From: Candidatus Versatilivorator sp.
GTDB taxonomy: Bacteria > Acidobacteriota > Terriglobia > Versatilivoradales > Versatilivoraceae
Direction: 5' to 3'
DNA: 64,000 nt
NCBI GenBank assembly: GCA_965207735.1
Contig: OZ242296.1
Coordinates: 796,257-860,256 of the forward strand
The notes under the pieces were generated by a model. The model saw only the letters and a program-made list of their open reading frames with translations, had not been told where the DNA came from and did no database searches. The position numbers and the translations under genes are program-made. Positions within the stretch are counted from its first letter, which is position 1. Each line of letters begins with the position of its first letter. Positions 18,648-53,842 of this stretch are shown in pieces.

Positions 18648-18653
18648 TTGTGT

Positions 18654-19710: not shown

Positions 19711-19929
19711 TCCCATTGTAGGAGTGCCCCTTGTGGGCACCCAATGAGGATGGCTGTGCTTGGACCGTCATATCCGCGGCGGGCTTCCCTCAGGTCCTCT
19801 GAAGCAACGTCACGCCATGATCGCCGCGGCCGTCTCGCGGAGGCAGTTTTGCCTTGCGGCTAAGCCATAAATCCAATAAAATCCGAAGCTTCGGGGCAAT
19901 AACCGATCCGTGACCGCCCGGACGACCCT

Positions 19930-21153
19930 ATGCCGGTGCTGTCGGAAGGGATGTTTCATCCACCCATGGCCGTTTATCTGGATTGCGCCGCCACCGCCCC
20001 GGTCGATCCCCGGGTGCAACGGGAGGTCATGACCTATCTGGGCGTTGAATTCGGCAATGCCGGCAGTCGGCACCACGGGTTCGGTTCCAGAGCTCGTAGC
20101 GCCGTGGAGAGGGCGCGTGTCCAAGTCGCGGCGGTGGTGGGCGCCACCCGGGGCGAAATTATCTTCACCAGCGGCGCTACCGAAAGCAACAACCTGGCCC
20201 TGCTGGGTTTGGCCGAGCACGGGGCCGGGACCGACAGGTTTCACCTTGTCAGCACCAGGATTGAGCACAAGTCCGTATTGGAACCCCTGCGGGCCCTTTC
20301 CGGCCGCGGTTTTGAAGTCACCCTGGTGGCTCCGGAGCCCGGCGGCTGGGTGCGTCCAGGGGCTATCCGGGACGCACTCCGAGAAAATACCCTGCTGGTC
20401 TCGGTCATGCAGGTCAACAACGAGACCGGCGTCATTCAGCCCATCCTGGAAATCGCCCGGCTGCTCGAGAACCATCCGGCTTACCTGCACGTGGATGCCG
20501 CCCAAGGCTTCGGGAAAGAGATCGCATCGCTACGCAACCGTCGCATCGACTTGATCAGCATCAGCGGTCATAAGGTCTACGCCCCCAAGGGCATCGGCGC
20601 CCTGGTCACCCGCCGGCGGAACGGACAGCGGCCTCCTCTCACCCCTTTAATGCATGGGGGAGGCCAGGAACTGGGGTTACGTCCCGGGACATTGCCGGTT
20701 CCGCTCATCGCCGGACTTGGCAAGGCCTCCGAACTGGCTTTGGCGGAGCACCAGGAACGCAACACGGTCTGTCGAAGGTTCAAGGAAATTCTCCTGCGGG
20801 AATTGCGGATGCTGAAGCCTGTCTTCAACGGGGATCTCGACCGCACGGTCCCTCAGATTGTCAACTTTTCCTTGCCGGGAATCAGCTCGGAGGAAGCCAT
20901 CGAGGCCGTGAGCCAGGTAGCCGCCATCTCCAACGGATCGGCCTGTACTTCGACCTCCGATAGCTGCAGCCACGTGCTGAGCGCTCAGAAGCTGGACGAG
21001 GCCCGCATGGAGGGGGCGCTTCGCCTTTCCTGGTGCCACCTGAGCCGTCAGCCCGACTGGAACGCCTTCATCCAGGCAGTCGAGGGGATTGGAGAACCGG
21101 CTCTCCCCGAAAGCTCAACCGCGGTGGGGATTGGCCAGGCCGGCGCCGCCTGA
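19930..21153 (+). CDS. Cysteine desulfurase (NifS/IscS-like, class V aminotransferase)
   Basis: 407 aa. 'FTSGATESNN', PLP-Lys 'SISGHKVYAPKGIGAL', catalytic Cys loop 'SNGSACTS'. A start at 19966 is also possible. Confidence 0.85.
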   Translation: MPVLSEGMFHPPMAVYLDCAATAPVDPRVQREVMTYLGVEFGNAGSRHHGFGSRARSAVERARVQVAAVVGATRGEIIFTSGATESNNLALLGLAEHGAGTDRFHLVSTRIEHKSVLEPLRALSGRGFEVTLVAPEPGGWVRPGAIRDALRENTLLVSVMQVNNETGVIQPILEIARLLENHPAYLHVDAAQGFGKEIASLRNRRIDLISISGHKVYAPKGIGALVTRRRNGQRPPLTPLMHGGGQELGLRPGTLPVPLIAGLGKASELALAEHQERNTVCRRFKEILLRELRMLKPVFNGDLDRTVPQIVNFSLPGISSEEAIEAVSQVAAISNGSACTSTSDSCSHVLSAQKLDEARMEGALRLSWCHLSRQPDWNAFIQAVEGIGEPALPESSTAVGIGQAGAA

Positions 21154-21173
21154 AAGCGGACGACACCATCCGA

Positions 21174-21650
21174 ATGGCACAAGACCGGCAGCAGCACATT
21201 CGGTACAAGCGATCCCGGTTTTCAACACGGCTGCCGCTGGACCGCCGCTATACGGCCTCGCACTTCTGGACTGTCGAGCAGCAAACCGGCCTTTGGCGGG
21301 TGGGAATGACCAAATTCGCCACACGGATGCTCGGTGATCTTGTAGAATTCGAATTCGATGCCAAGCCCGGCCAGCAGGTCAGTGTCGGACAGACCATCGG
21401 CTGGATCGAAGCCTTCAAGGCCCTGACCGACCTCTATTGCGTGGTCGACGGAGTATTCAGGAGTGTGAACCCCCTGATCGAAGAGGATATCAGTCTGGTC
21501 GACTCCGATCCCTACGGAAAGGGGTGGCTCTACAGCGCCAGCGGTACTCCTGAGTCCAAGAGCGTGGACGTGCACGGATACGTGGAGATTCTGGATCTCA
21601 CCATCGACAAGATGAAAGAGCAGTCGGGAAACAGGGATAGCGATGGATAA
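21174..21650 (+). CDS. Glycine-cleavage H-protein-like lipoyl/biotinyl-type carrier protein
   Basis: 158 aa from the ATG at 21174. 'YTASHFW...VGMTKFATRMLGDLVEFEF', 'IGWIEAFKALTDLY' (matches the ESVKAASD lipoyl-Lys region) and 'DPYGKGWL'. Confidence 0.75.
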   Translation: MAQDRQQHIRYKRSRFSTRLPLDRRYTASHFWTVEQQTGLWRVGMTKFATRMLGDLVEFEFDAKPGQQVSVGQTIGWIEAFKALTDLYCVVDGVFRSVNPLIEEDISLVDSDPYGKGWLYSASGTPESKSVDVHGYVEILDLTIDKMKEQSGNRDSDG

Positions 21651-22782
21651 GGCCCGCTACATCATGATCGGTGGGTTTCTGGGGGCCGGCAAGACGACAG
21701 CGGTGCTGCGACTGGCCAAGCTCTTGGAAGGCCGCGGGTCGCAAGTGGGACTGATCACCAACGACCAGAGCCACGGGTTGGTCGATACCGCCCTGCTCGG
21801 CTCCAGCGGGTTTCCCGTGGAGGAAATCACCGGCGGTTGCTTCTGCTGCAAGTTCGATTCCCTGGTGAGCGCCTCCGAACGGCTTTCCCGAGAGCGGCAG
21901 CCCGATGTCTTCCTGGCCGAGCCGGTGGGAAGCTGCACCGATTTGAAAGCCACCGTGGATTATCCCCTGCGCCGCATGTACGGGGAGAACTACTGGATTG
22001 CTCCCTTGAGCGTGATGGTGGATCCGGTTCGCGCCCTGCGCATTCTGGAGCTGGAGCCCGGGAGGTCTTTCTCACCCAAGGTGGTTTACGTCTACCGCAA
22101 GCAATTGGAGGAAGCCGACATCATCGTCATCAACAAGATCGATCTGCTCAGCCCGCAACGCCTGGAGCGGCTTCGCGGGGCCCTGCAGGAGTCCTTTTCC
22201 CCGCACCTTGTGTTGTCCGTTTCCGCTCGCCAGGACAAAGGCCTGGAGGAATGGTTCGAACAGATCACCCAGCCCCGGGCCTGCACACGGGGTGATCTGG
22301 CCGTGGACTACGACACCTACGCCGAGGGAGAGGCGCTTCTCGGCTGGCTAAACTGCAGCTTGCGGGTCGGGGCTGCGGCTCCCTTTGACGGTAACCTTTT
22401 TCTGCGGGACGCCATGGCAGCCATCCAGCGACGGATACGATCCCGGGAAATCGCCCACTTGAAGATGACCTTGACCCCTGACGAACAGGGCCAGGATATC
22501 GGGGTGGCCAATCTCACCGGTAGCGATGTCGCTCCTGACCAGTCCCATGTGTTGCAGGAACCTCTGAGGGCCGGGGAACTCATCGTCAATCTGAGGGCGG
22601 AGGCCGACCCGGACGCCTTGCGGACCCAGGTTCAGGAAGCCCTCGCGGCCCTCCGCCGGGATGGGGGCCTGGAATTCGAGATCGAGCATCTGGAATCGTT
22701 CCGTCCGGCCCGGCCCACCCCCACCCACCGGCTGCAGGCGTCGGAGACCGGGGTCGCGGCCTCACAGTCCGTTTCGGCTTGA
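21643..22782 (+). CDS. G3E-family P-loop GTPase (CobW/HypB/UreG-like) with CxCC motif and extra C-terminal domain
   Basis: 379 aa. Walker A 'GGFLGAGKTT', 'ITNDQ', 'GGCFCCK' (GCxCC), 'VINKIDL' (NKxD). The start overlaps the GcvH-like stop by 8 nt. Confidence 0.75.
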   Translation: MDKARYIMIGGFLGAGKTTAVLRLAKLLEGRGSQVGLITNDQSHGLVDTALLGSSGFPVEEITGGCFCCKFDSLVSASERLSRERQPDVFLAEPVGSCTDLKATVDYPLRRMYGENYWIAPLSVMVDPVRALRILELEPGRSFSPKVVYVYRKQLEEADIIVINKIDLLSPQRLERLRGALQESFSPHLVLSVSARQDKGLEEWFEQITQPRACTRGDLAVDYDTYAEGEALLGWLNCSLRVGAAAPFDGNLFLRDAMAAIQRRIRSREIAHLKMTLTPDEQGQDIGVANLTGSDVAPDQSHVLQEPLRAGELIVNLRAEADPDALRTQVQEALAALRRDGGLEFEIEHLESFRPARPTPTHRLQASETGVAASQSVSA

Positions 22783-22822
22783 ATATGGCGACAACCACCA
22801 CGTCAGGATACCGGGCCACCCA

Positions 22823-23191
22823 ATGCCGGGAGCGATGATGGCGCCAGCAGCAAAAATCCTCTATTGTCGTTGCGCCTACGCCAAGGTAATCGCTCCGGAA
22901 GTCAAGGACGAGGTCCTTCAAAGGCTCACGCAATCCGGGGTGCCCTTTGAGGCCGTGCCCGATTTGTGCGAGATGTCTGCCCGGCGCGATCCGGCGCTCA
23001 AACGCTTGGCGGCGGAGGATGGAACCAAGATTGCAGCCTGCTATCCTCGAGCCGTAAGGTGGCTTTTTTCAGCAGCCCAGTCCCCTCTGCCTAAAGACAC
23101 GGTTGATATTGTGAACATGCGCGTTGACAGTGCCGAAACCGTCGCCCAGGGTCTCCTTCAAGAGCATTCGAAAGGAGAAGATTCATCGTGA
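22823..23191 (+). CDS. Small Cys-containing protein of unknown function (~120 aa)
   Basis: In operon frame. 'KILYCRCAYAKVIAPEVKDEVLQRL...VPDLCEM...IAACYPRAV'. The start is ambiguous (ATG at 22823, 22835 or 22838). The stop overlaps the next gene's GTG start. Confidence 0.5.
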   Translation: MPGAMMAPAAKILYCRCAYAKVIAPEVKDEVLQRLTQSGVPFEAVPDLCEMSARRDPALKRLAAEDGTKIAACYPRAVRWLFSAAQSPLPKDTVDIVNMRVDSAETVAQGLLQEHSKGEDSS

Positions 23192-24081
23192 TCGCCCCCA
23201 AGCTGCCTCTCCAGATCGGCCTCTACCAGAACGGCGGCCACCACCTGCTCGGCGAGGACCGGCAGTACGACCTGACCCGCAGCCTTCTGGACAAGGGCTA
23301 TGCGGTTTCGGTTATCCGTTCGGACAGTCAAATTGGACAAATCCGGGAAGGGGCCTGGCTCTTTCTGGGGTGCTTCGGCAAGGAAGAAGCGTTTCCGTCC
23401 GTGGGAAACGGGAACGGAGCCAAGCTCTACTTCCGGGACATCGATGGTCTGGAAACCTCGCAGATACTGGAGGCCGTGGAGCAGGTGCGCGGTGAAACCG
23501 AGCTGCCCGATCCGGGCGGCTGGAAACCCTGGTTTCCGGTGATCGATTACAACCGCTGCACCAACTGCATGCAATGCCTGAGCTTCTGTCTGTTTGACGT
23601 CTACGGTGTACACGAGGACAAGATCCAGGTGCAGAACGAGAGCAATTGCAAGACGGACTGCCCCGCCTGCTCCCGAGTCTGCCCCGAGGTGGCCATTCTC
23701 TTTCCCAAGTACAAGAGCGGTCCCATCAACGGAGACGTGGTGCGGCAGGAGGACATTCAGCGTGAGGCCATGAAGGTGGACATCTCGGCCCTGCTGGGCG
23801 GGGATCTATACGGGTCCCTGCGGCAGCGCCAGACGGAAGCTCGCCAGCGTTTCTCCACCGAGCGGGACGAGTCTCGAGCCCTGCTGGAGCGCAAGAAGTG
23901 CCTGCGCAAGCTCAAGAAGGATTTTGACATCCCGGACGAGGTTCTGATGAGCCTGCCTTCGGCCGGCGACATCCAGGAGCGGGCCGAACGGGCCAAGGCA
24001 AAGCTGGCTGCCCGCCAGGAGCGCTCCCAGACCGTCAGGGACACCCGGCCGGCGCCCACCGAAGACGACTGGGGAATCTAG
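23188..24081 (+). CDS. 4Fe-4S dicluster ferredoxin-domain protein with unknown N-domain and long charged C-terminal tail
   Basis: 297 aa. GTG start with AAAGGAG upstream. 'CTNCMQCLSFCLFDV' and 'CKTDCPACSRVCPEVAI' are two CxxCxxCxxxC(P)-type clusters. The C-terminal ~110 aa is Arg/Lys/Glu-rich. Confidence 0.8.
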   Translation: MIAPKLPLQIGLYQNGGHHLLGEDRQYDLTRSLLDKGYAVSVIRSDSQIGQIREGAWLFLGCFGKEEAFPSVGNGNGAKLYFRDIDGLETSQILEAVEQVRGETELPDPGGWKPWFPVIDYNRCTNCMQCLSFCLFDVYGVHEDKIQVQNESNCKTDCPACSRVCPEVAILFPKYKSGPINGDVVRQEDIQREAMKVDISALLGGDLYGSLRQRQTEARQRFSTERDESRALLERKKCLRKLKKDFDIPDEVLMSLPSAGDIQERAERAKAKLAARQERSQTVRDTRPAPTEDDWGI

Positions 24082-24084
24082 CCG

Positions 24085-25290
24085 ATGCTCACAACTTTGC
24101 TCTCCTTTGGCTACCGCGTGGTTCGAACCACCGATGCCCGTCTGCTGTGGAAGATCGGCTACAACTTCGGGTACAAGGGCATCCGTTCCGTTCAGCGATT
24201 CAAGGCCCGGCTCAAGCAGGGACAGACCTTTCCCCCGTTTCTCTATATCTCCATCACCAATAGCTGCAACCTGCGCTGCCAGGGATGCTGGGTGGACGTC
24301 GACAAGCCCCAGTCCCTGATCAGCTTCGAGGACATGAACCGCTTGATCGGGAATGCCAAGCAGCATGGGAACAGCTTTTTCGGGATCCTGGGGGGAGAGC
24401 CGTTCCTCCATCCCGACCTCATCGCCATCCTGAAGGCTCACCCCGACTGCTACTTTCAGATCTTCACCAACGGGCACGCCATCACCGACAAGGTGGCCGC
24501 CGAGCTCCGCAAGGCCGGCAACGCCACACCCCTGGTCAGCGTGGAAGGGACCGAAGCCGTCAGCGACGTGCGGCGCGGCCGCAAAGGAGTCCTGAATCGG
24601 ACCCTGGCCGGCATCCAGGCCAGTCTTCGGCACCGTCTGATCACCGGGGTCGCCACCAGTGTCTGCCAGAGCAACTTCGACGACCTGGTCCGGGAGTCCT
24701 GGATCGACAACCTCATCGATATGGGAGTGCACTACACCTGGTTCCACACCTATCGCGCCGTAGGGCCCGTAGCCAACCCCCAGCTGGCCCTGACCGCCGA
24801 GCAGGGGCTCCGACTGCGCCGGTTCGTGCTGGATATGCGCAACCGCAAGCCCATCGGGATCGTGGATGCCTACTACGACGACCGGGGGGAGGCGCTGTGC
24901 CCGGCGGCCACCGGGATCAGCCACCACATCAGTCCCTTTGGCGACGTGGAGCCCTGCCCCGTGGTCCAGTTCGCCAACGAGTCCATCCACGACAACCAGG
25001 GGGACCTGTTCAAGACCATGACCGAGTCGCCCTTGCTGGAGGACTTTCGGCGCACGGCCGCCGGGGCTACCCGGGGCTGCATCGTGCTGGAACGACCCGA
25101 TCTCCTCAAGCAGGTGGTGGAGCGCAACAGCGCTCAAGACACCACCCTGCGGCACACAGCCATGCCGGAACTGGAGCAGATGCAATCCAGGCCCAGCCAG
25201 TACAATCCGGGCAACGAGCTGCCGGAGGAGAACTGGGCCTACCGTTTCGCCAAGAAGCACTGGTTCTTCGGATTTGGAGCCTACACCTGA
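24085..25290 (+). CDS. Radical SAM enzyme (no B12-binding domain evident)
   Basis: 401 aa. 'ISITNSCNLRCQGCW' (CxxxCxxC), 'GILGGEPFLH' (GGEP). C-terminal Cys pairs 'ALCPAATG...VEPCPV' and 'TRGCIV'. Confidence 0.85.
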   Translation: MLTTLLSFGYRVVRTTDARLLWKIGYNFGYKGIRSVQRFKARLKQGQTFPPFLYISITNSCNLRCQGCWVDVDKPQSLISFEDMNRLIGNAKQHGNSFFGILGGEPFLHPDLIAILKAHPDCYFQIFTNGHAITDKVAAELRKAGNATPLVSVEGTEAVSDVRRGRKGVLNRTLAGIQASLRHRLITGVATSVCQSNFDDLVRESWIDNLIDMGVHYTWFHTYRAVGPVANPQLALTAEQGLRLRRFVLDMRNRKPIGIVDAYYDDRGEALCPAATGISHHISPFGDVEPCPVVQFANESIHDNQGDLFKTMTESPLLEDFRRTAAGATRGCIVLERPDLLKQVVERNSAQDTTLRHTAMPELEQMQSRPSQYNPGNELPEENWAYRFAKKHWFFGFGAYT

Positions 25291-25331
25291 AGAGGAGTCC
25301 CGCCGCGGGAATCCAGGAGGGAGTCGCCAGC

Positions 25332-27122
25332 ATGATCCGGAAGGTAGTGGACGATCTCAAGCAGGCGCCGGATTCCGGAAACGGAGTTCTGCTGACACTT
25401 CCGGCCAAGGTCCCCAAGCAAGCCTATCGCCCGGCTCAGTCCAATATTCCCGACGACAAGCGGGTCCGGGTCTTTCTGAAGAAGGTCGTGGCCGATCATG
25501 TCCGCACGGTGGGCGCGGTGCCGCCGCTGACCATGGATGAGCTGCGGGACCATGCCACCGCCGTATTGACGAAGGCCGGGCTGGAAAGCAAGTACCGGGA
25601 CTACGCCGCCATTCTGGTCGGCAACGAGTCCTGGAGGGATACCCTGGCGCAGATTCCCTTCAACCGCCGTCTCCTGCTGCTCCCCAAGTGCCTGCGGGTG
25701 GAAGAACGCTGTCCGGCCCCCTTCGACGAGTTCGGGCTGCTCTGCAAGGAGTGCGGGCTGTGCTCTATCCAGGACCTGTCGGTGGAGGCCGAGAGGCTGG
25801 GCTACGCCGTCCTGGTTGCGGAGGGTTCGGCTATCGTGCGGCAGATGATCGAGACGGGCAAGATCGAAGCGGTGGTGGGAGTCAGTTGCATCAACGTGCT
25901 GGAGAAGTGCTTCCCCCATATGGAAGCGGCAGCCGTGCCGGGAATGGCCATTCCGCTGCTTCAGGACGATTGCGTGAACACCACCGTGGACCTGGACTGG
26001 GTCTGGGACCTGATTCACCTGACGGCCGACGACAAGACCTATCGCCTCGACCTGGACGGGCTCAAGAGCGAGGTTCAGAGTTGGTTCCGCAGGGAGGCGT
26101 TGGCGGAGCTGATGGGCGCGCCCTCGGAGGAGACGGCTGTCATCGCCCAGGACTGGCTGGCCAAGGCCGGAAAGCGCTGGAGACCCTATCTGGCCACCTG
26201 CACCACCATGGCGCTGCAGAGCCACCGGCAGGAGGCCTCCCCCCAAGCCTCGGCAGACCTGAAGAAGCTGGCGGTGGCCATTGAATGCTTCCACAAGGCC
26301 TCCCTGATCCACGACGACATCGAGGACGGCGACCTGGAGCGCTACGGCAGCCAAGCGCTGCACGCCGAGGTTGGAATGCCGGTAGCTCTCAACGTGGGAG
26401 ACTATCTGCTGGGAGAGGGCTACCGCTTGATCTCCGAGCTTTCCATCGATCCGGCCGTTCGGGTGGAGATGCTGCGGCTGGCCTCGGAAGGCCACCTGAC
26501 CTTGAGTCGCGGTCAGGGGTTGGAACTCTGCTGGGCCAGGAGTCCCAAGCCCCTCTCCTCCCTGCAGGTGCTGGATATCTTCCGCAAGAAGACGGCGCCG
26601 GCCTTCGAAGTGGCGCTGCGTCTGGGAGCCTGCCTGGCAGGCGCCGACGAAGAAACCCACTCCGTCCTGCGCCAGTACAGCCAATCGCTGGGCATCGCCT
26701 ATCAGATCCGCGACGATCTGGAGGACTACAACGGAAGCGGCGATTCCAACGACCTGGAGGCCCTGCGGCCCTCCCTGATTCTGGCCATTGCGCACAAGCG
26801 CGCCCTGCAGGGCCGCGAAAAGGACCTCATTTCCTCCCTCTTTTGCTTGGAGCGTGGCTATTCCCAGGTCTCGGCTGAAGTGCAGCGCATCCTGGTGGAA
26901 CGCGGGGTCACCGAGAAGGCCGAAGAACTTCTGGAGGCCTACAAGGAAGAGGCGGTTCGTTCCTTGCGCTTTCTCTCCAACCCGACGCTGAAGGGATTGC
27001 TGCGCCGGGTGGTGGGCAAGATCTTCGGCGAGCAGTTCATCGAGGGCTACTGCAGTGAGTTTGAGGCTCGAAATGCTGCAGGTCGCGCGCCTGGCCCCCA
27101 ACCTGTTGCGCGAAGCCACTGA
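25332..27122 (+). CDS. DUF116-like Cys-rich domain fused to a trans-polyprenyl diphosphate synthase domain
   Basis: 596 aa from the ATG at 25332 (GGAGGG RBS). N-half: 'RRLLLLPKCLRVEERCPAPFDEFGLLCKECGLCSI...VVGVSCINVLEKC...IPLLQDDCVNTTVD' (DUF116 pattern as I recall it). C-half: 'GKRWRP', first Asp-rich 'LIHDDIEDGD', second 'QIRDDLEDY'. The upstream 349 codons of track ORF 24285-27122 are off-frame overlap with the rSAM gene. Confidence 0.8.
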   Translation: MIRKVVDDLKQAPDSGNGVLLTLPAKVPKQAYRPAQSNIPDDKRVRVFLKKVVADHVRTVGAVPPLTMDELRDHATAVLTKAGLESKYRDYAAILVGNESWRDTLAQIPFNRRLLLLPKCLRVEERCPAPFDEFGLLCKECGLCSIQDLSVEAERLGYAVLVAEGSAIVRQMIETGKIEAVVGVSCINVLEKCFPHMEAAAVPGMAIPLLQDDCVNTTVDLDWVWDLIHLTADDKTYRLDLDGLKSEVQSWFRREALAELMGAPSEETAVIAQDWLAKAGKRWRPYLATCTTMALQSHRQEASPQASADLKKLAVAIECFHKASLIHDDIEDGDLERYGSQALHAEVGMPVALNVGDYLLGEGYRLISELSIDPAVRVEMLRLASEGHLTLSRGQGLELCWARSPKPLSSLQVLDIFRKKTAPAFEVALRLGACLAGADEETHSVLRQYSQSLGIAYQIRDDLEDYNGSGDSNDLEALRPSLILAIAHKRALQGREKDLISSLFCLERGYSQVSAEVQRILVERGVTEKAEELLEAYKEEAVRSLRFLSNPTLKGLLRRVVGKIFGEQFIEGYCSEFEARNAAGRAPGPQPVARSH

Positions 27123-27939
27123 GCGGGTCGACGACTTCCTGCGGAACCAGATCAATCCGGACGGAGGATTCCGGGATCGTGTCGGCCAAAGCGATCTCTA
27201 CTACACCGTCTTCGGCCTTGAAGGTCTGATCGCCCTGCGACAAGAGCCGCCTTACTCGCGGGTGCGCCCCTTCCTGGAAGGATTCGGGGACGGCGATGGG
27301 TTGGACCTGGTCCATCTGGCCTGCCTGGCCCGCTGCTGGGCAGCTCTTCCTTCCGGCAGCCTCTCTCCCGAAACCTGCCGGTGCCTGGTCGAAAGGCTGG
27401 AATCCTTTCGAGCCGGGGACGGAGGATACGCACCCACCCCTGGTGCCCCCGCGGGCGCCGTTTACCACGGCTTTTTGGTCCTGGGAGCTTACCAGGACCT
27501 GGGGGTTCCCATCCCAGACCCTACGGGGTTGGCAACTTCGGTCCAGGCGCTTCAATTGGACAGCGGGGGCTTTTCCGGCCGCCCCGGCCTACCGGCCCCT
27601 TCCACCCCCAATACCGCGGCAGCCCTGACCCTTCTCCGGCAATTCGGCTCCCCTGCCCTCCCCGGAGGCTCCGACTGGCTCTTGAGCCAGGCCTGCCCCG
27701 ACGGCGGCTTTCGTGCAGCGGAAGACACGCCCATTCCCGACCTGCTCTCGACAGCTACCGCCCTGCATGCCCTGGCCGGGCAACAGGTTTCCTTCCAACA
27801 CCTCAAGGAACCAACGCTGGATTTTCTAGACACCCTCTGGACCAGCCGGGGAGCCTTCTACGGAAACTGGACCGACGAGGTGGCCGACTGCGAATACACC
27901 TACTACGCCTTGCTCGCCCTGGGCCACCTGAGCCTGTGA
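27055..27939 (+). CDS. Prenyltransferase/squalene-oxidase-repeat (alpha/alpha-barrel) protein, single barrel
   Basis: About 290 aa. Four or five repeats of the type 'INPDGGFRD', 'AGDGGYAPTPG', 'LDSGGFSGRPG', 'CPDGGFRAAED'. Possible starts are GTG 27055, TTG 27061 or ATG 27073. Overlaps the end of the upstream gene. Confidence 0.75.
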   Translation: MSLRLEMLQVARLAPNLLREATERVDDFLRNQINPDGGFRDRVGQSDLYYTVFGLEGLIALRQEPPYSRVRPFLEGFGDGDGLDLVHLACLARCWAALPSGSLSPETCRCLVERLESFRAGDGGYAPTPGAPAGAVYHGFLVLGAYQDLGVPIPDPTGLATSVQALQLDSGGFSGRPGLPAPSTPNTAAALTLLRQFGSPALPGGSDWLLSQACPDGGFRAAEDTPIPDLLSTATALHALAGQQVSFQHLKEPTLDFLDTLWTSRGAFYGNWTDEVADCEYTYYALLALGHLSL

Positions 27940-28010
27940 GACTCGGTAGCCCCGGGAGCGCGGGCATCCCGCCCCCATCCTTATTCCTGCAAATAGTCTC
28001 CCGTCCAGGG

Positions 28011-28160
28011 TCACTCCCTCGCAAAGCGCACCAAACCCACCTTCACGGGGTTCTCTTCCATAAGGCGGAAGGTAAGAAATTGCATTGTTTCCGCTTCGTC
28101 GAAGTGCGGGAGGTAGCCACGATCGTGCCAATTCCTCTGCGGGCGGGACGCCCGCGCTCC
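28011..28160 (-). pseudogene. Remnant of a REP-associated tyrosine transposase (RayT/IS200-like), N-terminal fragment only
   Basis: 'RPQRNWHDRGYLPHFDEAETMQFLTFRL' matches the characteristic N-terminus 'RGYLPH(F/W)..(x)..(Q/Y)F(V/L)TFRL' of this family. The ORF stops after ~45 aa of homology. Confidence 0.45.
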
Positions 28161-28281
28161 CGGGTGGGCCTTGTTGACGGACACCATTGCTTGCACCGCT
28201 AAACCAGTCCGAGAAATGATTGCAGTGTAGCCAATGCCCATTGAAGATAAAATCTCAGGAAATCTCAGGTTTTGGGCTAAC

Positions 28282-30363
28282 CCATCTTTAACACGGCTTC
28301 CAAGTATACGTTTATTATCAACAGGTTACAAAAGGCTCAACGCGCAAGTGGCACTACAAACGCGTTGAAACCGGAGATTTTGGAGGAATCAGACGATCAT
28401 CTTGCGGATCCCTCCAGGAGAGGGATCGATGCCCAGGGCGTCGTAGATGGCCCTCTGATCGGGTTCGGCCCGTGTGGCCTTGCGGACGTGCAAGGTCCGC
28501 CCGTCCTGACGCCGGAAGGTGACCGTGACCCGCTGCTGTCCTTCCAGGATGCGCCGCAGCGTGGTCCAACTGGAGGCCTCGCCGCGCTGCTTGAGGCGTT
28601 TGCGGATGACCTGCACCAGTTGATAGGCGATGACCGTCAGAAACAGGTGACCTTCCGAGCGCACCGGCTTGTGATGATAGATGGGCCGCAGGCCCAGCTC
28701 GGACTTCAGGGAGCGAAACACCGCTTCCACGTCGGTCAGAGTCGTGTAGGTACGCCAGAGACTTTCCTCGTCCCAGTCAGTCTGGTTGCTGCGCAGGCAG
28801 TAGACCCCCGGATGGGTGGCCATCGAGCCCTGGCGGGGACGGTGCTTCCATCTCAGCGCTGTCGCCTTGCGGCCGCTCTCGTCGGTGAGGACCTCGATGC
28901 TGTAGTGTTGCCCCACCCCGCGGCTCTGTTCCTTCAGCCGCCCGATCCTCTCCCGGACCTTCTCGACGCCTTTGTGAGTCCGCGGCCGGGAAAGCCCCTC
29001 GGAGAGTCGGGTGAGCCCCTGCTCGAAGCGCCGGCTGAAGCGCTCCACGATGCCCTTCTCCTTCTCAGCCCGCTGCTGTGAGCGGCAGTAGAGACGCACT
29101 TCCTGCCCGTCGTCGGAGATCTCCTTGTGGAGCTGCAGCTCGGCCTTGGAAGCCGTCTCCACCGTCACGGCCGCCTCGGCATCGAACTGCCTCCGGCCCT
29201 GGCGGCTGGCCACCAGGTAGCGATACCCTTCCTCCCTCAACCACTGGATCCGGTCCTCGGTCGCCACCCCCCGATCCATCACCACCAAGGCTCCCCGGGG
29301 CGCCTCCAGCGCCTCCAGCATCCCCTCCAGGGTGCGGGGCTCATCCACCCTACCGGCAAAGACCTCCGAGCGGCGCACAAACCCCGCCCCGTCCAGCACC
29401 AACCCCAGCGTCAGCAGCCGACAGTCGCTGCGCTTGTCCTTCGAGTGGCCCCGCTCGGCCTTGGGCTGATGGCTGGCCGCCCCTTCGAAGAAGGTGTTGG
29501 TCAGATCGAACAGGGTGACGGTCGGCTCCAGATCGAACAACCCCATGGCCCGGGTGAAGAGGTGACGCTCGATGGCCTCCCGATGCTTCATCAGCGCGTC
29601 CGAGGCCCGATACATCTGCATCAGACTCAGGCTCTCGAAGTCAACCTCCAGCAACTCGCCCAAGCCGCTGCGCCGCCTGAGCCAGCCCCAGGTGGCCCTC
29701 TCCGAGCCCGGTCGGGCCAGACGGCCTACCATGGCCCCCAACGCCGCTGCCCGCATCGGTCCGTTCAGCCCTAACTCGGTCAGCAGATCCCCCAGCCCCA
29801 ACTGCTCCAGCGCCCAGCAACCGACCTGCTCCACCCCCACGCTGCGCGGACGTGTCAAGGCCACCGAATCCACCTCGACCGTCTGCAGGTCCTCTGAGGC
29901 GGCCTCCCCGCCAACGCCGGTCACGTCGGCTTCGCCCTCAAGCAAGCGCTGGGCCATGCGTTGGGCTTCCTCCTCCAACGGGGTGGAAGCCACCGGCAAG
30001 AGAGGCAACTGACCGGTGAGGATCTGATCGAGACGGCGGCACAACAAGGGCCAGTCCTCACGGGGGATCGAGAAGTGTCGACCGAGGTTGAGGAGGGTCT
30101 GCTGGCGGACCTTGCCACTGACGCGATGGGAGCGGACGAGGCGGTGGGTGAAGTAGGTCTGTCCGGAATGGAGGCTGCGGGTCTGGGTGCGTCGGATGAA
30201 CATGGGAGGGACGCTACCAGAGGAGAGAGAGGGGGTCAAGCCCATCCCATACGATTATGGCACTACATTCACCTCCTCAACCAAGAATCAACAACTTACG
30301 GGTGGTTTTAGGCTAAAATGGGGGTAAAATACCTCAAATCGGCCGTTTCTTTGTTAAAGATGG
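28282..30363 (-). mobile_element. IS1634-family insertion sequence, 2082 bp, 12-bp TIRs, 6-bp TSD
   Basis: Ends 'ccatctttaaca' (28282-28293) and 'tgttaaagatgg' (30352-30363) are exact reverse complements. Direct repeat GCTAAC at 28276-28281 and 30364-30369. Confidence 0.85.
28389..30203 (-). CDS. IS1634-family (IS4 superfamily) transposase
   Basis: About 604 aa from 'MFIRRTQTRSLHSGQTYFTHRLVRS...' (typical IS1634 N-terminus). DDE-type core. The track ORF starts 14 codons further upstream. Confidence 0.85.
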   Translation of the reverse strand: MFIRRTQTRSLHSGQTYFTHRLVRSHRVSGKVRQQTLLNLGRHFSIPREDWPLLCRRLDQILTGQLPLLPVASTPLEEEAQRMAQRLLEGEADVTGVGGEAASEDLQTVEVDSVALTRPRSVGVEQVGCWALEQLGLGDLLTELGLNGPMRAAALGAMVGRLARPGSERATWGWLRRRSGLGELLEVDFESLSLMQMYRASDALMKHREAIERHLFTRAMGLFDLEPTVTLFDLTNTFFEGAASHQPKAERGHSKDKRSDCRLLTLGLVLDGAGFVRRSEVFAGRVDEPRTLEGMLEALEAPRGALVVMDRGVATEDRIQWLREEGYRYLVASRQGRRQFDAEAAVTVETASKAELQLHKEISDDGQEVRLYCRSQQRAEKEKGIVERFSRRFEQGLTRLSEGLSRPRTHKGVEKVRERIGRLKEQSRGVGQHYSIEVLTDESGRKATALRWKHRPRQGSMATHPGVYCLRSNQTDWDEESLWRTYTTLTDVEAVFRSLKSELGLRPIYHHKPVRSEGHLFLTVIAYQLVQVIRKRLKQRGEASSWTTLRRILEGQQRVTVTFRRQDGRTLHVRKATRAEPDQRAIYDALGIDPSPGGIRKMIV

Positions 30364-30377
30364 GCTAACCATATCCG

Positions 30378-32294
30378 ATGAATTCAAATACTGTGCTCGA
30401 TCGCGAAAAACTCAGGCACACCTTGGCTCGCGCCACCCGCAAGCTGCTGGATTCCCGGGTCCCGGCAGGCCACTGGGAAGGTGAGTTGTCGAGCAGCGCC
30501 CTCTCCACCGCCACCGCGGTGCTGGCTTTGGCCCTGCTGCTGCGGGAGGGAGAAGGGCGTCTGGATCCGAGTCTGGCGGCCACCTGTCGGAATTTGACGG
30601 CCAAGGGAAGGGACTGGCTGGTTGAGAACCAAAATCCGGACGGTGGTTTCGGCGATACAGTCGGGAGCCCCGGCAACCTGAGCACCACGGCGCTGGGCTG
30701 GGGGGCCTTGACAGCCGCGGACGGTGGTTGTGACCAGACTCTGAACGCTACTCGGGCCTGGCTGACGGCCAGGACCGGAGGTCTGGACGCCGGGGCGCTG
30801 GCCACGGCCATTACCGCCCGCTATGGGGATGATCGCACCTTCTCGGCACCCATCCTGACCGCCTGCGCCCTGGCCGGAGCCTTCGGACCGGATAAAGGCG
30901 TCTGGAGCCGCGTCCCTCAGCTCCCTTTCGAGCTGGCCGTCTGTCCCCCGCAGTGGTTCAAGTGGCTGCGCCTGCCGGTGGTCAGCTATGCCCTGCCGGC
31001 CCTGATCGCCATCGGCCAGGTCCGCCACTGCTTCCATGCCACTCGAAATCCCTTGCTGCGCCTGATCCGCTCCCTGGCACGACGAAGGAGCCTGGAGATC
31101 CTGCAGACCATTCAGCCGGCAAGCGGCGGTTACCTGGAAGCGGTTCCTCTCACCAGCTTCGTGATCATGAGCCTGGCGGCCAGCGGGCAGGCATGCCACC
31201 CGGTCGTCTTGCGGGGTGTGGATTTTTTGGCGGCCACCGCTCGGGCCGACGGATCCTGGCCCATCGATACCAACCTGGCAACCTGGGTGACCACCCAGTC
31301 CCTCGCTTCCCTGGCGGCCGGAGGGGATCTCGAATCCCACCTGGATGCGGAAGAGCGCCGAGACCTCCGGCGCTGGCTGCTGGATCAGCAATATCACAGC
31401 CTGCACCCCTATACCCATGCCGAGCCTGGCGGCTGGGCCTGGACCGATCTGCCGGGCGGGGTTCCGGATGCCGACGATACCGCCGGCGCCCTGCTGGCCT
31501 TGAGCTACCTGGGACCCGGCGATGTCGAGTCGATTCAAGCCGCTTCCGCCGGCGTGGAGTGGCTGCTCGATCTGCAGAACTCTGACGGAGGCATTCCAAC
31601 CTTCTGTCGTGGCTGGGGCCGGCTGCCCTTCGACCGCAGCAGCCCCGATCTCACGGCCCATGCGCTGCTGGCCTGGTCAAGCTGGCAACAGGCTGTTCCG
31701 CTCCGGCTTCGATCCCGCCTGCAGTCGGCCGGGAGGCGCGGTGTGAACTATCTGTCCGTTTCCCAACGAGAGGACGGCGCCTGGGTGCCGCTCTGGTTCG
31801 GTAACCAGGCGGCCCGAGGCGAAGAGAACCCGACCTATGGCACGGCCCGGGTAGTGCTGGCTCTCAACCGTCTGAGCGACGACGGAGACTTTCCGGTTGA
31901 AGGAATGAGGAGTCGAGGCATCGACTGGTTGCTGGCTGCGCAGAACGCCGACGGTGGCTGGGGCGGATCTGCAGGAGTGGCATCCACCATCGAAGAGACG
32001 GCTCTGGCGGTACAGACCCTGGCGGATGCCCCGGATGTGGCTTCGCATTCCCTGGACCTGACGAGGAGCCCCGTGGAGGTCGCCATCGCCAAGGGGGTAT
32101 CCTTGCTGGTCGCTGCCACCCGAGGGGGGCGGGATTTCAAGCCGTCGCCCATCGGACTCTACTTTTCCAAGCTGTGGTACTTCGAGCGCCAGTATCCGGT
32201 TATCTTCTCCGTGGCCGCCCTGGGTCGGGCAGCCTCCACGGATTATCGATGCACCCTTTCCAATACCTCGGCCGGCGGAGGCGGAAACAGGTAG
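30378..32294 (+). CDS. shc: Squalene-hopene cyclase
   Basis: 638 aa. Catalytic 'GVPDADDTAGALLAL' (DxDD). Multiple QW-type repeats: 'QNPDGGFG', 'QNSDGGIP', 'QREDGAWVPLWF', 'QNADGGWGG'. Confidence 0.9.
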   Translation: MNSNTVLDREKLRHTLARATRKLLDSRVPAGHWEGELSSSALSTATAVLALALLLREGEGRLDPSLAATCRNLTAKGRDWLVENQNPDGGFGDTVGSPGNLSTTALGWGALTAADGGCDQTLNATRAWLTARTGGLDAGALATAITARYGDDRTFSAPILTACALAGAFGPDKGVWSRVPQLPFELAVCPPQWFKWLRLPVVSYALPALIAIGQVRHCFHATRNPLLRLIRSLARRRSLEILQTIQPASGGYLEAVPLTSFVIMSLAASGQACHPVVLRGVDFLAATARADGSWPIDTNLATWVTTQSLASLAAGGDLESHLDAEERRDLRRWLLDQQYHSLHPYTHAEPGGWAWTDLPGGVPDADDTAGALLALSYLGPGDVESIQAASAGVEWLLDLQNSDGGIPTFCRGWGRLPFDRSSPDLTAHALLAWSSWQQAVPLRLRSRLQSAGRRGVNYLSVSQREDGAWVPLWFGNQAARGEENPTYGTARVVLALNRLSDDGDFPVEGMRSRGIDWLLAAQNADGGWGGSAGVASTIEETALAVQTLADAPDVASHSLDLTRSPVEVAIAKGVSLLVAATRGGRDFKPSPIGLYFSKLWYFERQYPVIFSVAALGRAASTDYRCTLSNTSAGGGGNR

Positions 32295-32339
32295 CTTGCC
32301 GTGTAACCGACGAACAGGTCTGCCATGGTTCGACTCCGT

Positions 32340-33914
32340 TCAATAGGTCGGCTTCCCTACCCCGCGGGGAGCATGGAAGCTCCCGCGGGTGAGTCCCCGG
32401 CCGGCTTCGATGTAGTCGTCCAGCTTCCGCTTCAGATCCGCCACTACATCCGGGTATTGCGCGGCCACATCCGTCAGCTCGTCGGGGTCCTTTTCGCGGC
32501 TGTAGAGCTGGGGCGGATAGGTGCCGGAGTATTCGTCCGGATTCCACACCGCGCTGAAGTTCCATTCAGGGGTTCGCACCGCCCCGATCCATCCGTAGGC
32601 CATGACGGCGTGATCGTGAATGCTCCGGGTTTTCCCCGTGACCAGCGGCCAGAAGTCCTTTCCGGTGACCCGCGGGACCGGCTCCAGTTCCAGTCGTCCC
32701 AGCAGGGTGGGAACGTAGTCGGGGATCTGGACGAAGCCGCCCACTCGCCGGCCGGCGCCTTCCCTGCCGGGCAGGCGAACCAGCAGGGGCAGATGAGACA
32801 CTTGGCGGCGAATGCGTTCCGGCCCTTTGCAGAACTGGCCCTGCTCCCCCAGCAGTGCTCCATGATCAGACATGAAGGCCACGATGGAGTTGTCGAACAG
32901 TCCCAGTTCCTCGATCGCCTTGAAGATCTCTCCCAGCCAGTAGTCCACACATTCGCTTTCGGCGAAGTAGTTGGCTCTCAAGCGTTTGACTCCCTCCTCC
33001 GGAACCTCGACATCATCATAGGGCGGCGTGGCCCAGGTGGGTCCCTTGGCATTGGGCATGTAATTGTCCAGAAACCTCCTGGGCGGGTCCCAGGGCTCGT
33101 GGGGATCGAAGGCCTCCATTTGGAGGAAAAAGGGCTTGTGGCCGTGATTTTCCCTGAGCCAGGCAATGACCTTCCTGGCAGTAATTTCAATCAGGGATTC
33201 GCCCTCCTTCAGCCACCGGCTCATGTTCAGCTTACCCTGGTTGACTTCCCACCGCAGGTCGGCTCTGGAGAAAGGGCTGAAATTCTCCAAGTAGGCTTCC
33301 GGGACCACATCGGTGATCTCCGGCAGTTGGTGAGGCAAGGTGGCGTAGTAATCGAAGGAATGGCCTCTGACCCAGTCGAAATAGCGGAAACCTCGATGAA
33401 AGTTTCGCCCCGGCCGGGTGAAATGGAGAATGTCGGCGATCAGGGCGGTGGCGTAGCCGGCTTCATGAAGGGTCTCGGCCAGGGTGACATCTTCGAAAAA
33501 CAATGGATGCCAGCCAGGCATTTGCACCGGATCATGCTGCTGATAGTAGTCGAAAGGCACGATTCTTCGTCCGGTCATGAGGTTTCGCCGAATGGGAACC
33601 GTCGGCAAGGCCTCCGGGTAGGCATCTTCGAAGATGACGCTGTCTTGCGCAAAGCGGTTGAGGTTGGGGCAGTCCACCTGGTTACCCCCATAGCAGGCCA
33701 GGTTGTCGGCACGAAAGGTGTCCACGTCCAGCAGGATGAGATTCAGCCGGTTGCCCTTGTCCCTCTGGTCCGGCGGTTTTTCCCAGACTCCGCCGGAAGC
33801 ATCAGTGTCACTCCCCTCAGGCCGGCTGCCGGCGCAGCCCGCCAGGCCGACGGCCGCCGCCGAGGCCGGAGCCCGCGTCAGAAATTCCCTTCTGGAGAAA
33901 TGTTTGGGCGCCAT
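32340..33914 (-). CDS. Tat-exported sulfatase-family (alkaline-phosphatase superfamily) hydrolase with Thr at the nucleophile position
   Basis: Start at the ATG at 33914 (AAGGAG upstream). 'SRREFLTRAPASAAAVGLAGC' Tat/lipobox leader, 'LILLDVDTFRAD'. The signature region reads 'TVPIRRNLMTGR' where sulfatases have (C/S)xPxRxxx(L/M)TGR. Confidence 0.75.
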   Translation of the reverse strand: MAPKHFSRREFLTRAPASAAAVGLAGCAGSRPEGSDTDASGGVWEKPPDQRDKGNRLNLILLDVDTFRADNLACYGGNQVDCPNLNRFAQDSVIFEDAYPEALPTVPIRRNLMTGRRIVPFDYYQQHDPVQMPGWHPLFFEDVTLAETLHEAGYATALIADILHFTRPGRNFHRGFRYFDWVRGHSFDYYATLPHQLPEITDVVPEAYLENFSPFSRADLRWEVNQGKLNMSRWLKEGESLIEITARKVIAWLRENHGHKPFFLQMEAFDPHEPWDPPRRFLDNYMPNAKGPTWATPPYDDVEVPEEGVKRLRANYFAESECVDYWLGEIFKAIEELGLFDNSIVAFMSDHGALLGEQGQFCKGPERIRRQVSHLPLLVRLPGREGAGRRVGGFVQIPDYVPTLLGRLELEPVPRVTGKDFWPLVTGKTRSIHDHAVMAYGWIGAVRTPEWNFSAVWNPDEYSGTYPPQLYSREKDPDELTDVAAQYPDVVADLKRKLDDYIEAGRGLTRGSFHAPRGVGKPTY

Positions 33915-53808: not shown

Positions 53809-53842
53809 GAAGTCGAACTGAACGATCCTGGAGGAAGGTCCT

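Follow-up and report, generated by a model that had tools for sequence, protein, structure and literature searches.

A conserved gene cluster around a DUF116-fused polyprenyl diphosphate synthase: a candidate squalene-independent route to a cyclised membrane lipid

What is made by a tight run of bacterial genes that brings together a cysteine desulfurase, a lipoyl-carrier-like protein, a GTPase, a ferredoxin, a radical S-adenosylmethionine (rSAM) enzyme and a polyprenyl diphosphate synthase (PPS), and that is followed by a cyclase resembling squalene-hopene cyclase (SHC)? The question is raised by a locus of Candidatus Versatilivorator sp. (Acidobacteriota; Terriglobia), contained in a stretch of 64,000 nucleotides (contig OZ242296.1 of assembly GCA_965207735.1, positions 796,257 to 860,256 of the forward strand) that is called the window here and whose first letter is position 1 of all window coordinates. 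A preliminary description, made from the letters of the window without database searches, had suggested that the locus makes or modifies an unknown polyprenyl-derived lipid, or a prenylated or thiolated cofactor or protein. After analysis of the window and its relatives, the lipid is the better supported of these options, and the cofactor and protein options are possible and less supported. With roughly even confidence, we propose on the basis of gene content that the operon encodes a squalene-independent route to a cyclised polyprenyl-derived membrane lipid that is tailored by radical chemistry.

The block consists of eight open reading frames (ORFs; here g1 to g8) on the + strand at 19930-27939, as seen in the ORF listing and the translations, and the operon-like junctions read in the preliminary description were confirmed. 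A gap of 20 nt separates g1 from g2, g2 and g3 overlap by 8 nt, g3 and g4 are 40-52 nt apart depending on the choice of start, g4 and g5 overlap by 4 nt, and gaps of 3 nt and 41 nt separate g5 from g6 and g6 from g7, respectively. The last pair, g7 and g8, overlaps by 50 nt when g8 is started at ATG 27073 and by 68 nt with the alternative GTG 27055. When the window proteins were scanned with the Pfam and NCBIfam models, all families that had been proposed for the locus were recovered (PF00266, PF01597, PF02492, Fer4, PF04055, PF01976 with PF00348, PF00432, and PF13243/PF13249 for the cyclase).

Within this block, g1 (19930..21153) encodes a class I (IscS/NifS-type) cysteine desulfurase (PF00266, 206.6 bits), g2 (21174..21650) a GcvH-like lipoyl-carrier paralogue (PF01597, 75.5 bits), and g3 (21643..22782) a G3E/COG0523-type GTPase that has a GCFCC motif and a C-terminal domain specific to its family (PF02492, 85 bits). 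The gene g4 (22823..23191; the start may also be ATG 22835) encodes a 122-residue protein with four cysteines that belongs to no Pfam or NCBIfam family, g5 (23188..24081) a protein with a 2x[4Fe-4S] ferredoxin domain (Fer4 families, residues 115-170), and g6 (24085..25290) a rSAM enzyme (PF04055, 59 bits). The signature gene of the set, g7 (25332..27122), encodes a fusion of a DUF116 domain (PF01976, 124.4 bits against a cut-off of 25) with a trans-polyprenyl diphosphate synthase (PF00348, 145 bits), written here as DUF116::PPS. The protein encoded by g8 (27073..27939) is a single (alpha/alpha)6 toroid of the prenyltransferase-beta-like kind (PF00432, 49.2 bits against a cut-off of 26.5). No NCBIfam model reached its cut-off for any protein of the cluster. 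A promoter and terminator scan of 18900-32600 gave counts at the level of shuffled sequence, and an Rfam scan of the whole window found no riboswitch or other RNA element near the cluster.

Relatives of the DUF116::PPS fusion number in the thousands at 70-93% identity. With one genome scanned per species, they were found in at least 554 species of Acidobacteriota (Terriglobia, Vicinamibacteria, Thermoanaerobaculia), Planctomycetota, Verrucomicrobiota, Hydrogenedentota and Methylomirabilota, and the best 80 of these at least 554 species genomes are all metagenome-assembled. Partner genes were searched by tblastn of nine window proteins against the related loci, and synteny was counted in the 54 loci that extend at least 5.5 kb upstream and at least 5 kb downstream of the fusion gene, a partner being scored when it lies on the same strand within 9 kb. 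By this count g4 and g5 are present in all 54 loci, g8 in 52, g6 and g2 in 51 each, g3 in 50, the SHC-like cyclase in 45 and the desulfurase in 32. Both the order g2-g3-g4-g5-g6-g7-g8-cyclase and the strand are kept almost everywhere (45-54 of the 54 loci, at least six phyla), and the synteny spans Acidobacteriota, Planctomycetota, Hydrogenedentota, Verrucomicrobiota, Methylomirabilota and Bacteroidota. The operon opens with the desulfurase gene in Terriglobia and closes with it in Planctomycetota and Hydrogenedentota, and elsewhere this gene is absent. This arrangement is far beyond chance, and the block is a conserved functional unit; the preliminary description would have fallen with a neighbourhood not conserved in related genomes, and the neighbourhood is conserved. 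One related locus (L070, CAMAWP010000002.1) comes from a metagenome-assembled genome (MAG) labelled Akkermansia muciniphila and holds a Pedosphaera-like version of the cluster with a g7 that is 57% identical; the label probably reflects a mistake in binning or naming.

When only the DUF116 domain was used as query, 884 cluster representatives were recovered at E up to 0.001, and the full-length representatives are nearly all 480-660 residues long with DUF116 at the N-terminus. The DUF116::PPS fusion was present in 8 of 10 scanned distant representatives (38-49% identity) and is still seen at 38-41% identity, and a profile of these distant fusions led to a second large clade of about 527 residues whose members are partly named Bacteroidales, Tenuifilaceae and Salinivirgaceae. 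In four loci of this distant clade (L085, L086, L088 and L090), the ferredoxin, the rSAM enzyme, DUF116::PPS, the toroid and the SHC-like cyclase are all present, and the GcvH-like protein and the desulfurase were found in none. The G3E GTPase is absent from L085, L086 and L088, and L090, alone of the four, has a full-length g3 orthologue (37% identity over residues 5-365). The ferredoxin of L085, L086 and L088 matches g4 with its N-terminal half and the 2x[4Fe-4S] domain of g5 with its C-terminal half. Alignment (L085, L086) confirmed this g4::ferredoxin fusion, in which the four cysteines of g4 are kept and the two ferredoxin motifs are intact, and a natural (Rosetta-stone) fusion of this type ties g4 functionally to the ferredoxin.

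Since the distant clade retains them, five components form the core of the system, namely g4::ferredoxin (g4 and g5 in the window), the rSAM enzyme, DUF116::PPS, the toroid and the cyclase. The whole system has three layers, with this core, a frequent G3E GTPase, and a GcvH-like protein and a desulfurase that occur only in loci of Acidobacteriota, the Planctomycetes-Verrucomicrobia-Chlamydiae (PVC) group and Hydrogenedentota; the three proteins outside the core are accessory. The sulfur/metal front end that the preliminary description had seen at the start of the operon is therefore not one module, because g4 and the ferredoxin belong to the core and are fused in the distant clade, and only g1 to g3, which are missing together from three of the four distant-clade loci examined, form an accessory part. 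At one further locus (L087, 2710-4320), a distant DUF116::PPS gene stands alone 3' of rho with no cluster partners within reach, so the fusion can exist outside the cluster. Another DUF116 representative (P0372, 493 aa) is joined to a peptidase S46 fragment and has no polyprenyl synthase; it probably is a chimera that arose in gene calling or assembly.

In the window, the cyclase gene (g10, 30378..32294, + strand) is separated from g8 by a spacer and an insertion sequence (IS). The 343-nt spacer (27940..28282) carries on its - strand the transposase remnant noted in the preliminary description, a RAYT-like N-terminal fragment whose translation reads RNWHDRGYLPHFDEAETMQFLTFRL, with inverted GC-rich, REP-like palindromic repeats on its flanks. 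This spacer lies outside the system and is lineage-specific; it recurs in L005, the closest relative found, which is a Terriglobia MAG 94% identical at the nucleotide level. Next to it lies an IS1634-family element on the - strand (28283..30362; transposase 28389-30245, NF033559, 283.9 bits against a cut-off of 100), which is bounded by terminal inverted repeats of 11 bp, CATCTTTAACA, and flanked by a target duplication of 8 bp, GGCTAACC, at 28275-28282 and 30363-30370, and which ends 15 nt upstream of the cyclase ATG. The corresponding site in L005 is empty: L005 is collinear with the window in two blocks, 19278-28282 and 30361-34028, which share ~10 bases on the L005 side. The IS insertion suspected earlier is thus confirmed; it is recent, and it split the cyclase from the operon.

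In other phyla g8 and the cyclase gene adjoin or overlap, for example in L001 (12602/12599) and L086 (12693/12690), and the cyclase lies immediately 3' of g8 in L001, L002, L004, L085, L086 and L088. Given these junctions and the absence of the IS from L005, the cyclase is the ninth gene of the operon. The preliminary description had placed an shc gene next to the operon; a cyclase does follow, and it is a member of the operon, not a neighbour, and of a divergent SHC-like kind, not a true SHC. The junction between g8 and the cyclase is also an insertion hot spot in the Terriglobia lineage of the window, where unrelated inserts of 2.3-2.8 kb occupy the spacer in L006 (12609-15431), L008 (12609-15043) and L012 (12645-14911). 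In L007 no cyclase was found within 10 kb.

The protein encoded by g10 has the two alpha/alpha-toroid domains by which a class II cyclase is recognised (PF13249, 54.6 bits, and PF13243, 109.8 bits, both above their gathering scores). It matches an SHC of the PDB (1gsz) only at E 1.4e-18 and 69.8 bits; its DADDTA motif aligns with D374-A379 of A. acidocaldarius SHC, and alignment showed that the equivalents of W312, D447, H451, W489 and Y495 of the same enzyme are kept. The stretch VPDADDT is invariant in 45 cyclase homologues and in the distant clade, including Bacteroidota. Against the SHC equivalog TIGR01507, g10 scores 94.3 bits with a cut-off of 431.1. Judged by these sequence features, g10 is predicted to be a class II terpene cyclase of a divergent SHC-like kind and not a true SHC.

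Cyclases of this description have been noticed before. According to the main text of one study, the SHC-like cyclases of Planctomycetes keep the residues that are critical for catalysis, and the genomic neighbourhood in which they lie suggests a precursor different from squalene (Santana-Molina et al. 2020, PMC7306690). The SHC-like clade is described, by two papers independently, as comprising PVC, Fibrobacteres-Chlorobi-Bacteroidetes (FCB) and Acidobacteriota sequences, as having undetermined function and structure, and as branching next to cyclases of head-to-tail polyprenyl chains (PMC7306690; bioRxiv 10.1101/2024.10.28.620730). The range of g10 relatives (PVC, FCB, Acidobacteriota), their kept catalytic residues and a context free of squalene genes match these descriptions, and g10 most probably belongs to the published clade, as matched by description and not by tree. 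The main texts of both papers (PMC7306690; bioRxiv 10.1101/2024.10.28.620730) make no mention of the rSAM, DUF116::PPS, g4/ferredoxin, toroid or GcvH/G3E/desulfurase partners, and no description of the rSAM/DUF116/ferredoxin/GcvH gene set was found in the literature searched. The proposal that the system is undescribed has accordingly to be narrowed: the clade and the hint at a non-squalene precursor were already in print, as far as these main texts go, and the gene set itself is the part for which no description was found. A preprint on Bipolaricaulota lists one predicted cluster with DUF116, IspH, 'SHC', 'adenosyl-hopene transferase' and polyprenyl synthetase and gives no genetic link to a product; it is taken as a lead only.

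The role of SHC-like cyclases matters to the study of bacterial lipids and molecular fossils, and the clade is large and occurs in abundant soil and aquatic phyla. The cyclase is found here to have a fixed set of partners, and the minimal five-gene core makes SHC-like function directly testable.

The synthase domain of g7 has an intact first aspartate-rich motif (FARM, DDIED) and second aspartate-rich motif (SARM, DDLED), both invariant. Its DUF116 domain has seven invariant cysteines (C120, C127, C138, C141, C144, C186 and C214), and the same seven are found in the distant clade; they would fit one four-cysteine and one three-cysteine cluster site, a 4+3 split that we infer. At positions -5/-4 before the FARM, g7 has Ala and Ser. 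In the control of chain length, small residues at these positions argue against a short C15 product, so the chain made by g7 is probably C20 or longer. Given that the synthase is always fused to DUF116 and stays below every NCBIfam equivalog cut-off, it is not a housekeeping enzyme. Likewise, the g6 protein scores 41.6 bits against HpnH (TIGR03470, cut-off 225.05) and higher, still below threshold, against unrelated rSAM families. The block therefore does not resolve into a housekeeping geranylgeranyl or octaprenyl diphosphate synthase and an HpnH orthologue, an outcome that the preliminary description had allowed for. Binding of B12 by DUF116 was also considered, the best Foldseek matches of the domain being B12-binding domains (E 0.007, TM about 0.26-0.29), and was rejected, because the DxHxxG motif is lacking and the seven invariant cysteines point to Fe-S clusters.

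The overlap between g7 and g8 is itself conserved: in 54 of 62 loci it measures 41-62 nt and the ATG falls on the same codon of the alignment. On this ground g8 most likely starts at ATG 27073 and would be translationally coupled to g7. Within 27055-27122 the two genes are read in different frames, both of which are conserved, and this segment holds the invariant C-terminal motif of g7, EGYCSEFEARNAA; the conservation of g8-frame sequence upstream of ATG 27073 is probably in part a by-product of the dual coding. A profile comparison of g8 with g10 gave a probability of 28%, that is, no meaningful relationship beyond the toroid repeat.

The rSAM enzyme g6 is the most conserved protein of the set, with 70-83% identity between phyla and a spread of 70-97% in the whole tblastn comparison across phyla. 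Its CNLRCQGC motif (CX3CX2C) and the residues C272, C291 and C332 are invariant from the window to Bacteroidota, and the C-terminal motif W.YR.AKK.WFFGFGAY is invariant from Terriglobia to Bacteroidota; both termini are aromatic and amphipathic. The seven-cysteine SPASM motif was not found in g6, which has three C-terminal cysteines only and scores far below the cut-offs of the SPASM models, and its three-cysteine site would be twitch-like at most.

The likely electron donors of g6 are g4 and g5. The residues C15, C17, C49 and C73 of g4 are invariant in 58 sequences, and the AlphaFold2 (AF2) model (pLDDT 79.4) shows a four-stranded flavodoxin-like alpha/beta fold; g4 is a probable Fe-S or metal electron-transfer domain. 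In g5 the CxxCxxCxxxC and CxxxCxxCxxxCP motifs and a charged C-terminal tail are conserved, and the N-terminal domain is variable. A profile comparison of g4 with the N-terminus of g5 gave a probability of 7%, with no meaningful relationship.

Because a polyprenyl synthase, an intact class II cyclase and a rSAM enzyme with its own electron donors are invariably associated, we read the operon as a terpenoid pathway, which might proceed as follows. The synthase domain of g7 would extend an allylic primer with isopentenyl diphosphate to an all-trans polyprenyl diphosphate, probably of C20 or longer. The g8 protein, which would be made in a fixed ratio to g7 by way of the conserved gene overlap, may take up or present the hydrophobic chain, and the acid of the DADDTA motif of g10 would protonate its terminal double bond, so that the chain is folded into rings. 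A radical tailoring or bond-forming step on the isoprenoid would fall to g6, probably on the membrane surface, with low-potential electrons supplied by g4 and g5 to g6 and possibly also to the cysteine-rich DUF116 domain. The GcvH-like protein, the G3E GTPase and the desulfurase would act as lineage-specific support that supplies or repairs metal and sulfur centres, or supplies sulfur. The sequences themselves show the content, order and coupling of the genes, their conservation across phyla, the intact catalytic motifs of the synthase, the cyclase and the rSAM enzyme, and the g4::ferredoxin fusion. The scheme infers the substrates, the chain length, the order of the steps, what DUF116 and g8 do, and which radical step takes place. 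A gene for a GT4-family glycosyltransferase lies beside the cluster in two unrelated loci (L001, 2919-4214, - strand; L090, 13415-14710), and its protein could glycosylate the product.

The nearest known counterpart is the hopanoid pathway (Shc and HpnH), which also pairs a two-domain DxDDTA class II cyclase with a rSAM enzyme acting on terpenoids; here too, the product is likely a polycyclic membrane lipid. The layout of g6, with an N-terminal amphipathic stretch followed by CX3CX2C, likewise resembles that of HpnH. Unlike the hpn cluster, however, the present one lacks hpnCDE and a squalene synthase and has a DUF116-fused polyprenyl synthase instead, and it adds a toroid protein, a dedicated Fe-S electron pair and a GcvH/G3E/desulfurase module. 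A search for the squalene synthase domain PF00494 was negative both for the scanned ORFs of the window and for the called genes of L001-L004, L085, L086, L088 and L090. Together with the scores far below the SHC and HpnH cut-offs (94.3 against 431.1 and 41.6 against 225), this bears out the earlier view that the locus is not a canonical hpn cluster.

The cluster also resembles the sesquarterpene pathway of Bacillus (sporulene; heptaprenyl diphosphate synthase, YtpB and SqhC) and the Lon15/AtoE systems, where a long head-to-tail chain is cyclised by an SHC-family enzyme with no squalene involved. In those pathways, in contrast, cyclisation is preceded by the action of a class I-type synthase (YtpB) or of an epoxidase, and there is no rSAM enzyme, DUF116, ferredoxin pair or toroid. 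Unlike the epoxy-polyprenyl cyclases Lon15 and AtoE, g10 has the alkene-protonating DxDD, and no epoxidase is encoded nearby.

Several points weigh against this pathway or leave parts of it loose. The best chain-length equivalog gives 112.9 bits for g7 with a cut-off of 450, all 16 listed families stay far below their cut-offs, and the PDB matches of g7 are to synthases of all chain lengths alike (52-85 bits). The predicted structure of DUF116, which is of mediocre quality (pLDDT 68), has no significant match among solved structures, and the g4 model has none in the PDB, with generic Rossmann/flavodoxin-like matches only (best E 0.012). At the position of the cyclase motif DxDDTA, g8 has PDLLSTATALHAL, which replaces the acid motif, so g8 is unlikely to protonate an alkene; it also has Leu and Tyr at what we take to be the positions of the Cys and His zinc ligands of protein farnesyltransferase (FTase) beta, and the role assigned to it above is a guess. 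The cyclase was not found within 9 kb in five Verrucomicrobiota loci and one Methylomirabilota locus, so ring formation may be optional or its gene may lie elsewhere. The rSAM enzyme, the ferredoxin, DUF116::PPS and the toroid form the unvarying unit, and its reaction may be of a new kind, such as a reductive or radical coupling or functionalisation of a polyprenyl diphosphate. Moreover, a lipid pathway has no obvious need for a GcvH-like lipoyl carrier or a G3E GTPase, and it does not account for the secreted PQQ_2 propellers that recur beside the cluster and are described below.

As a bolder and more tentative form of the proposed lipid pathway, which we hold to be possible and clearly below even confidence, the product may be a new class of polycyclic isoprenoid, made by a widespread bacterial route that had not been recognised. 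Its head-to-tail chain would be made by the DUF116-fused synthase and cyclised in the SHC-like manner, and the radical chemistry, possibly a sulfur insertion or a reductive step, would be without parallel in the synthesis of hopanoids or sterols; in that case isoprenoid metabolism would gain a new catalytic Fe-S enzyme in DUF116. If this is true, the product could be a source of orphan terpane biomarkers from Acidobacteriota, PVC and Bacteroidota, and a membrane lipid of this kind in Vicinamibacteria, Planctomycetota and others would matter for the reading of lipid biomarker records. The cluster also gives two families their first functional context, with DUF116 tied to a polyprenyl synthase and g4 a partner of a ferredoxin and a rSAM enzyme.

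The accessory proteins keep their characteristic motifs and stand apart from the housekeeping families. In g1 the pyridoxal-phosphate lysine (HK) and the SACTS cysteine loop are conserved; DndA comes closest among the NCBIfam models (465.8 bits, cut-off 480), and none of the IscS, NifS and DndA equivalogs is reached. Against the GcvH equivalogs, g2 scores 82.1 with a cut-off of 117 and 72.3 with a cut-off of 115.85, and at least 90% of 61 homologues keep the context of its lipoyl-lysine, EAFKALTD; by these scores it would be a GcvH-like paralogue distinct from the housekeeping H protein. At 2995-3927, 16 kb upstream, the window has a gene for a canonical lipoyl synthase (Radical_SAM and LIAS_N), so that lipoylation of g2 is possible without the rSAM enzyme of the cluster. 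In g3 the Walker A motif GGFLGAGKTT, GGCFCC and NKxD (NKID) are conserved, and so are the C-terminal 170 residues, which match no family; CobW_C (PF07683) had no match in the scan, and the best NCBIfam match of g3 is a CobW-related selenoprotein family.

Directly 5' of the desulfurase gene, the window has a gene for an OsmC-like peroxiredoxin (19267-19710), which was seen in Terriglobia-type loci only (the window, L002/L003, L005, L006, L008 and L012). OsmC/Ohr enzymes are reduced by lipoylated proteins. The OsmC-like gene could be connected with the GcvH-like protein, or the adjacency is a coincidence.

Lipoyl carriers are found together with rSAM enzymes, Fe-S proteins and a source of sulfur, joined by a GTPase where a hydrogenase is matured, in the sHdr-LbpA system, in lipoyl synthase/GcvH and in [FeFe]-hydrogenase maturation (HydE/G, the HydF GTPase and H-protein). 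Such lipoate-binding-protein systems are a possible model for the accessory module only. Unlike sHdr-LbpA and hydrogenase maturation, the present system has no Hdr-like CCG proteins, lipoate ligase, hydrogenase or HydE/G/F orthologues that could be found in the Pfam and NCBIfam scans, its module is dispensable in the distant clade, and its client would be a terpenoid pathway. The accessory module suggests either the upkeep of sacrificial or labile metal centres or true incorporation of sulfur. Proteins of the g1 to g3 type have been repeatedly recruited to this terpenoid pathway, which would be a new use of them if they serve chemistry and not maintenance.

True incorporation of sulfur would keep the pathway and alter its product. 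In that case g6 or DUF116 would insert sulfur to give a thiol, a thioether or a thiophene-type terpenoid, the sulfur would pass from the desulfurase to the 4-Cys protein g4 and/or to the dihydrolipoyl arm of the GcvH-like protein, and the G3E GTPase would help to rebuild a sacrificial Fe-S cluster, as known from lipoyl and biotin synthases. The recruitment of a dedicated IscS/DndA-like desulfurase at two positions, as first or last gene, in different phyla speaks for this, together with the kept lipoyl-lysine of g2 and the match of g3 to a selenoprotein-related family. The three-cysteine auxiliary site of g6 resembles that of sulfur-inserting enzymes, but such sites also occur in enzymes that insert no sulfur, such as MoaA. 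Similarly, 7 of 58 g4 homologues have weak matches to PF11823 ('putative Se/S carrier'; best E 0.00097), but these are below the gathering score. The distribution of the genes argues against it: the desulfurase is not within 9 kb in 22 of the 54 loci, and the GcvH/desulfurase set is missing in the distant core-only clade, where sulfur would need to come from housekeeping systems. We also know of no sulfur-containing bacterial membrane terpenoid of such a kind. We consider a sulfur-containing product unlikely.

Another explanation starts from the neighbours of the cluster. The product could be a specialised lipid-soluble redox cofactor or membrane component for an envelope redox system, a larger unit that would include PQQ_2 beta-propellers, a NapH-like polyferredoxin and a NuoEF/GltD-like module. 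Among distant lineages, genes for PQQ_2 propellers with signal peptides or membrane anchors recur beside the cluster: L001 and L088 have five each, L086 has four, L074 two, and L002 and L090 a single one. In L001, L086 and L088 the position of some of them is operon-like, and sometimes they overlap the last cluster gene. Relatives of the window copy (11700-12941, with a Tat-like signal) were found by tblastn in 20 of 87 loci. In addition, L086 (17553-21767), L088 (13477-17572) and L090 (1-4875) have genes for an extra ferredoxin, a Fer4_5 (NapH-like) polyferredoxin, NuoEF-like proteins (2Fe-2S_thioredx and Complex1_51K) and a GltD-like protein. These electron-module genes look like an NADH-to-ferredoxin supply or an envelope redox system, and they fit a pathway that needs dedicated low-potential electrons. 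However, most Acidobacteriota loci have no PQQ_2 gene within 10 kb, the nearest PQQ_2 copy of the window is 7 kb off behind unrelated genes, and no gene for quinone-type ring formation or an aromatic prenyltransferase is present. PQQ_2 propellers are also very numerous in genomes of Planctomycetota and Bacteroidota, where some adjacency is expected by chance. On balance, a redox cofactor of this type is improbable.

Prenylation of a protein or of a protein-bound cofactor appears more doubtful still. Here g7 would be the donor, g8 would transfer the chain to a thiol (the dihydrolipoyl arm of the GcvH-like protein or a partner cysteine), and the rSAM enzyme and the cyclase would remodel the chain. 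The g8 protein shares its Pfam family and its single (alpha/alpha)6 toroid with the beta subunits of FTase, geranylgeranyltransferase I (GGTase-I) and Rab geranylgeranyltransferase (RabGGTase), and its gene lies beside that of a supplier of prenyl diphosphate. Its sole PDB matches are RabGGTase beta subunits, g7 and g8 are coupled in translation like two subunits, and the operon encodes a carrier-type protein with a conserved modified lysine. These PDB matches are weak, however (E 0.01; residues 29-65, 37 residues), and the similarity is confined to the repeat motif. Unlike a protein prenyltransferase, g8 has no alpha subunit, no alpha-subunit-like gene being present in the loci examined, and its Asp/Cys/His zinc site is not evident by motif comparison. 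The GcvH-like protein is absent from the distant core-only clade, and no cluster protein has a CaaX-like C-terminus. Rce1-like CAAX-protease genes (window 7718-8533; L085) were considered as a hint at prenylation and rejected, since they are not recurrent.

A last alternative is that housekeeping genes with no common task lie side by side here, for Fe-S assembly and glycine cleavage together with a polyprenyl synthase of general use and a diverged hopanoid cyclase. It might be thought of because the domain families are each common singly and because lipoate metabolism is present anyway (lipoyl synthase, above). It is in effect refuted by the synteny of order and strand across phyla in 45-54 of 54 loci, and further by the start/stop overlaps with the conserved g7/g8 overlap, the fusions DUF116::PPS and g4::ferredoxin, scores of all members below the housekeeping equivalog cut-offs, and an identity spread of 40-95% that disfavours the recent transfer of a single island.

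The window carries further mobile elements and a few unusual genes outside the operon. A second IS occupies about 17132-19277, between a Fur-rubrerythrin gene and the OsmC-like gene, and contains a transposase ORF (17259-18434) with DDE_Tnp_1 and DUF772 domains; it is absent from L005, where the interval measures about 274 nt, against about 2147 nt in the window. A third transposase (42494-43816) has the same Pfam make-up as the second IS, and the two have no similarity at the DNA level. Adjoining it at 41532-42374 on the - strand are the ends of a group II intron (Rfam RF02003, 80.8 bits, and RF00029, 41.2 bits), which are only about 840 nt apart and so leave no room for a maturase ORF. A separate block on the - strand at 51642-55744 encodes a PQQ-dependent dehydrogenase (PF01011, 692 bits), a multihaem c-type cytochrome and a BBP2 porin, and is unrelated to the cluster. 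The Fur-rubrerythrin gene (15827-16837, - strand) encodes a Fur-family regulator fused to rubrerythrin/ferritin-like domains, an unusual architecture that is also present in L005.

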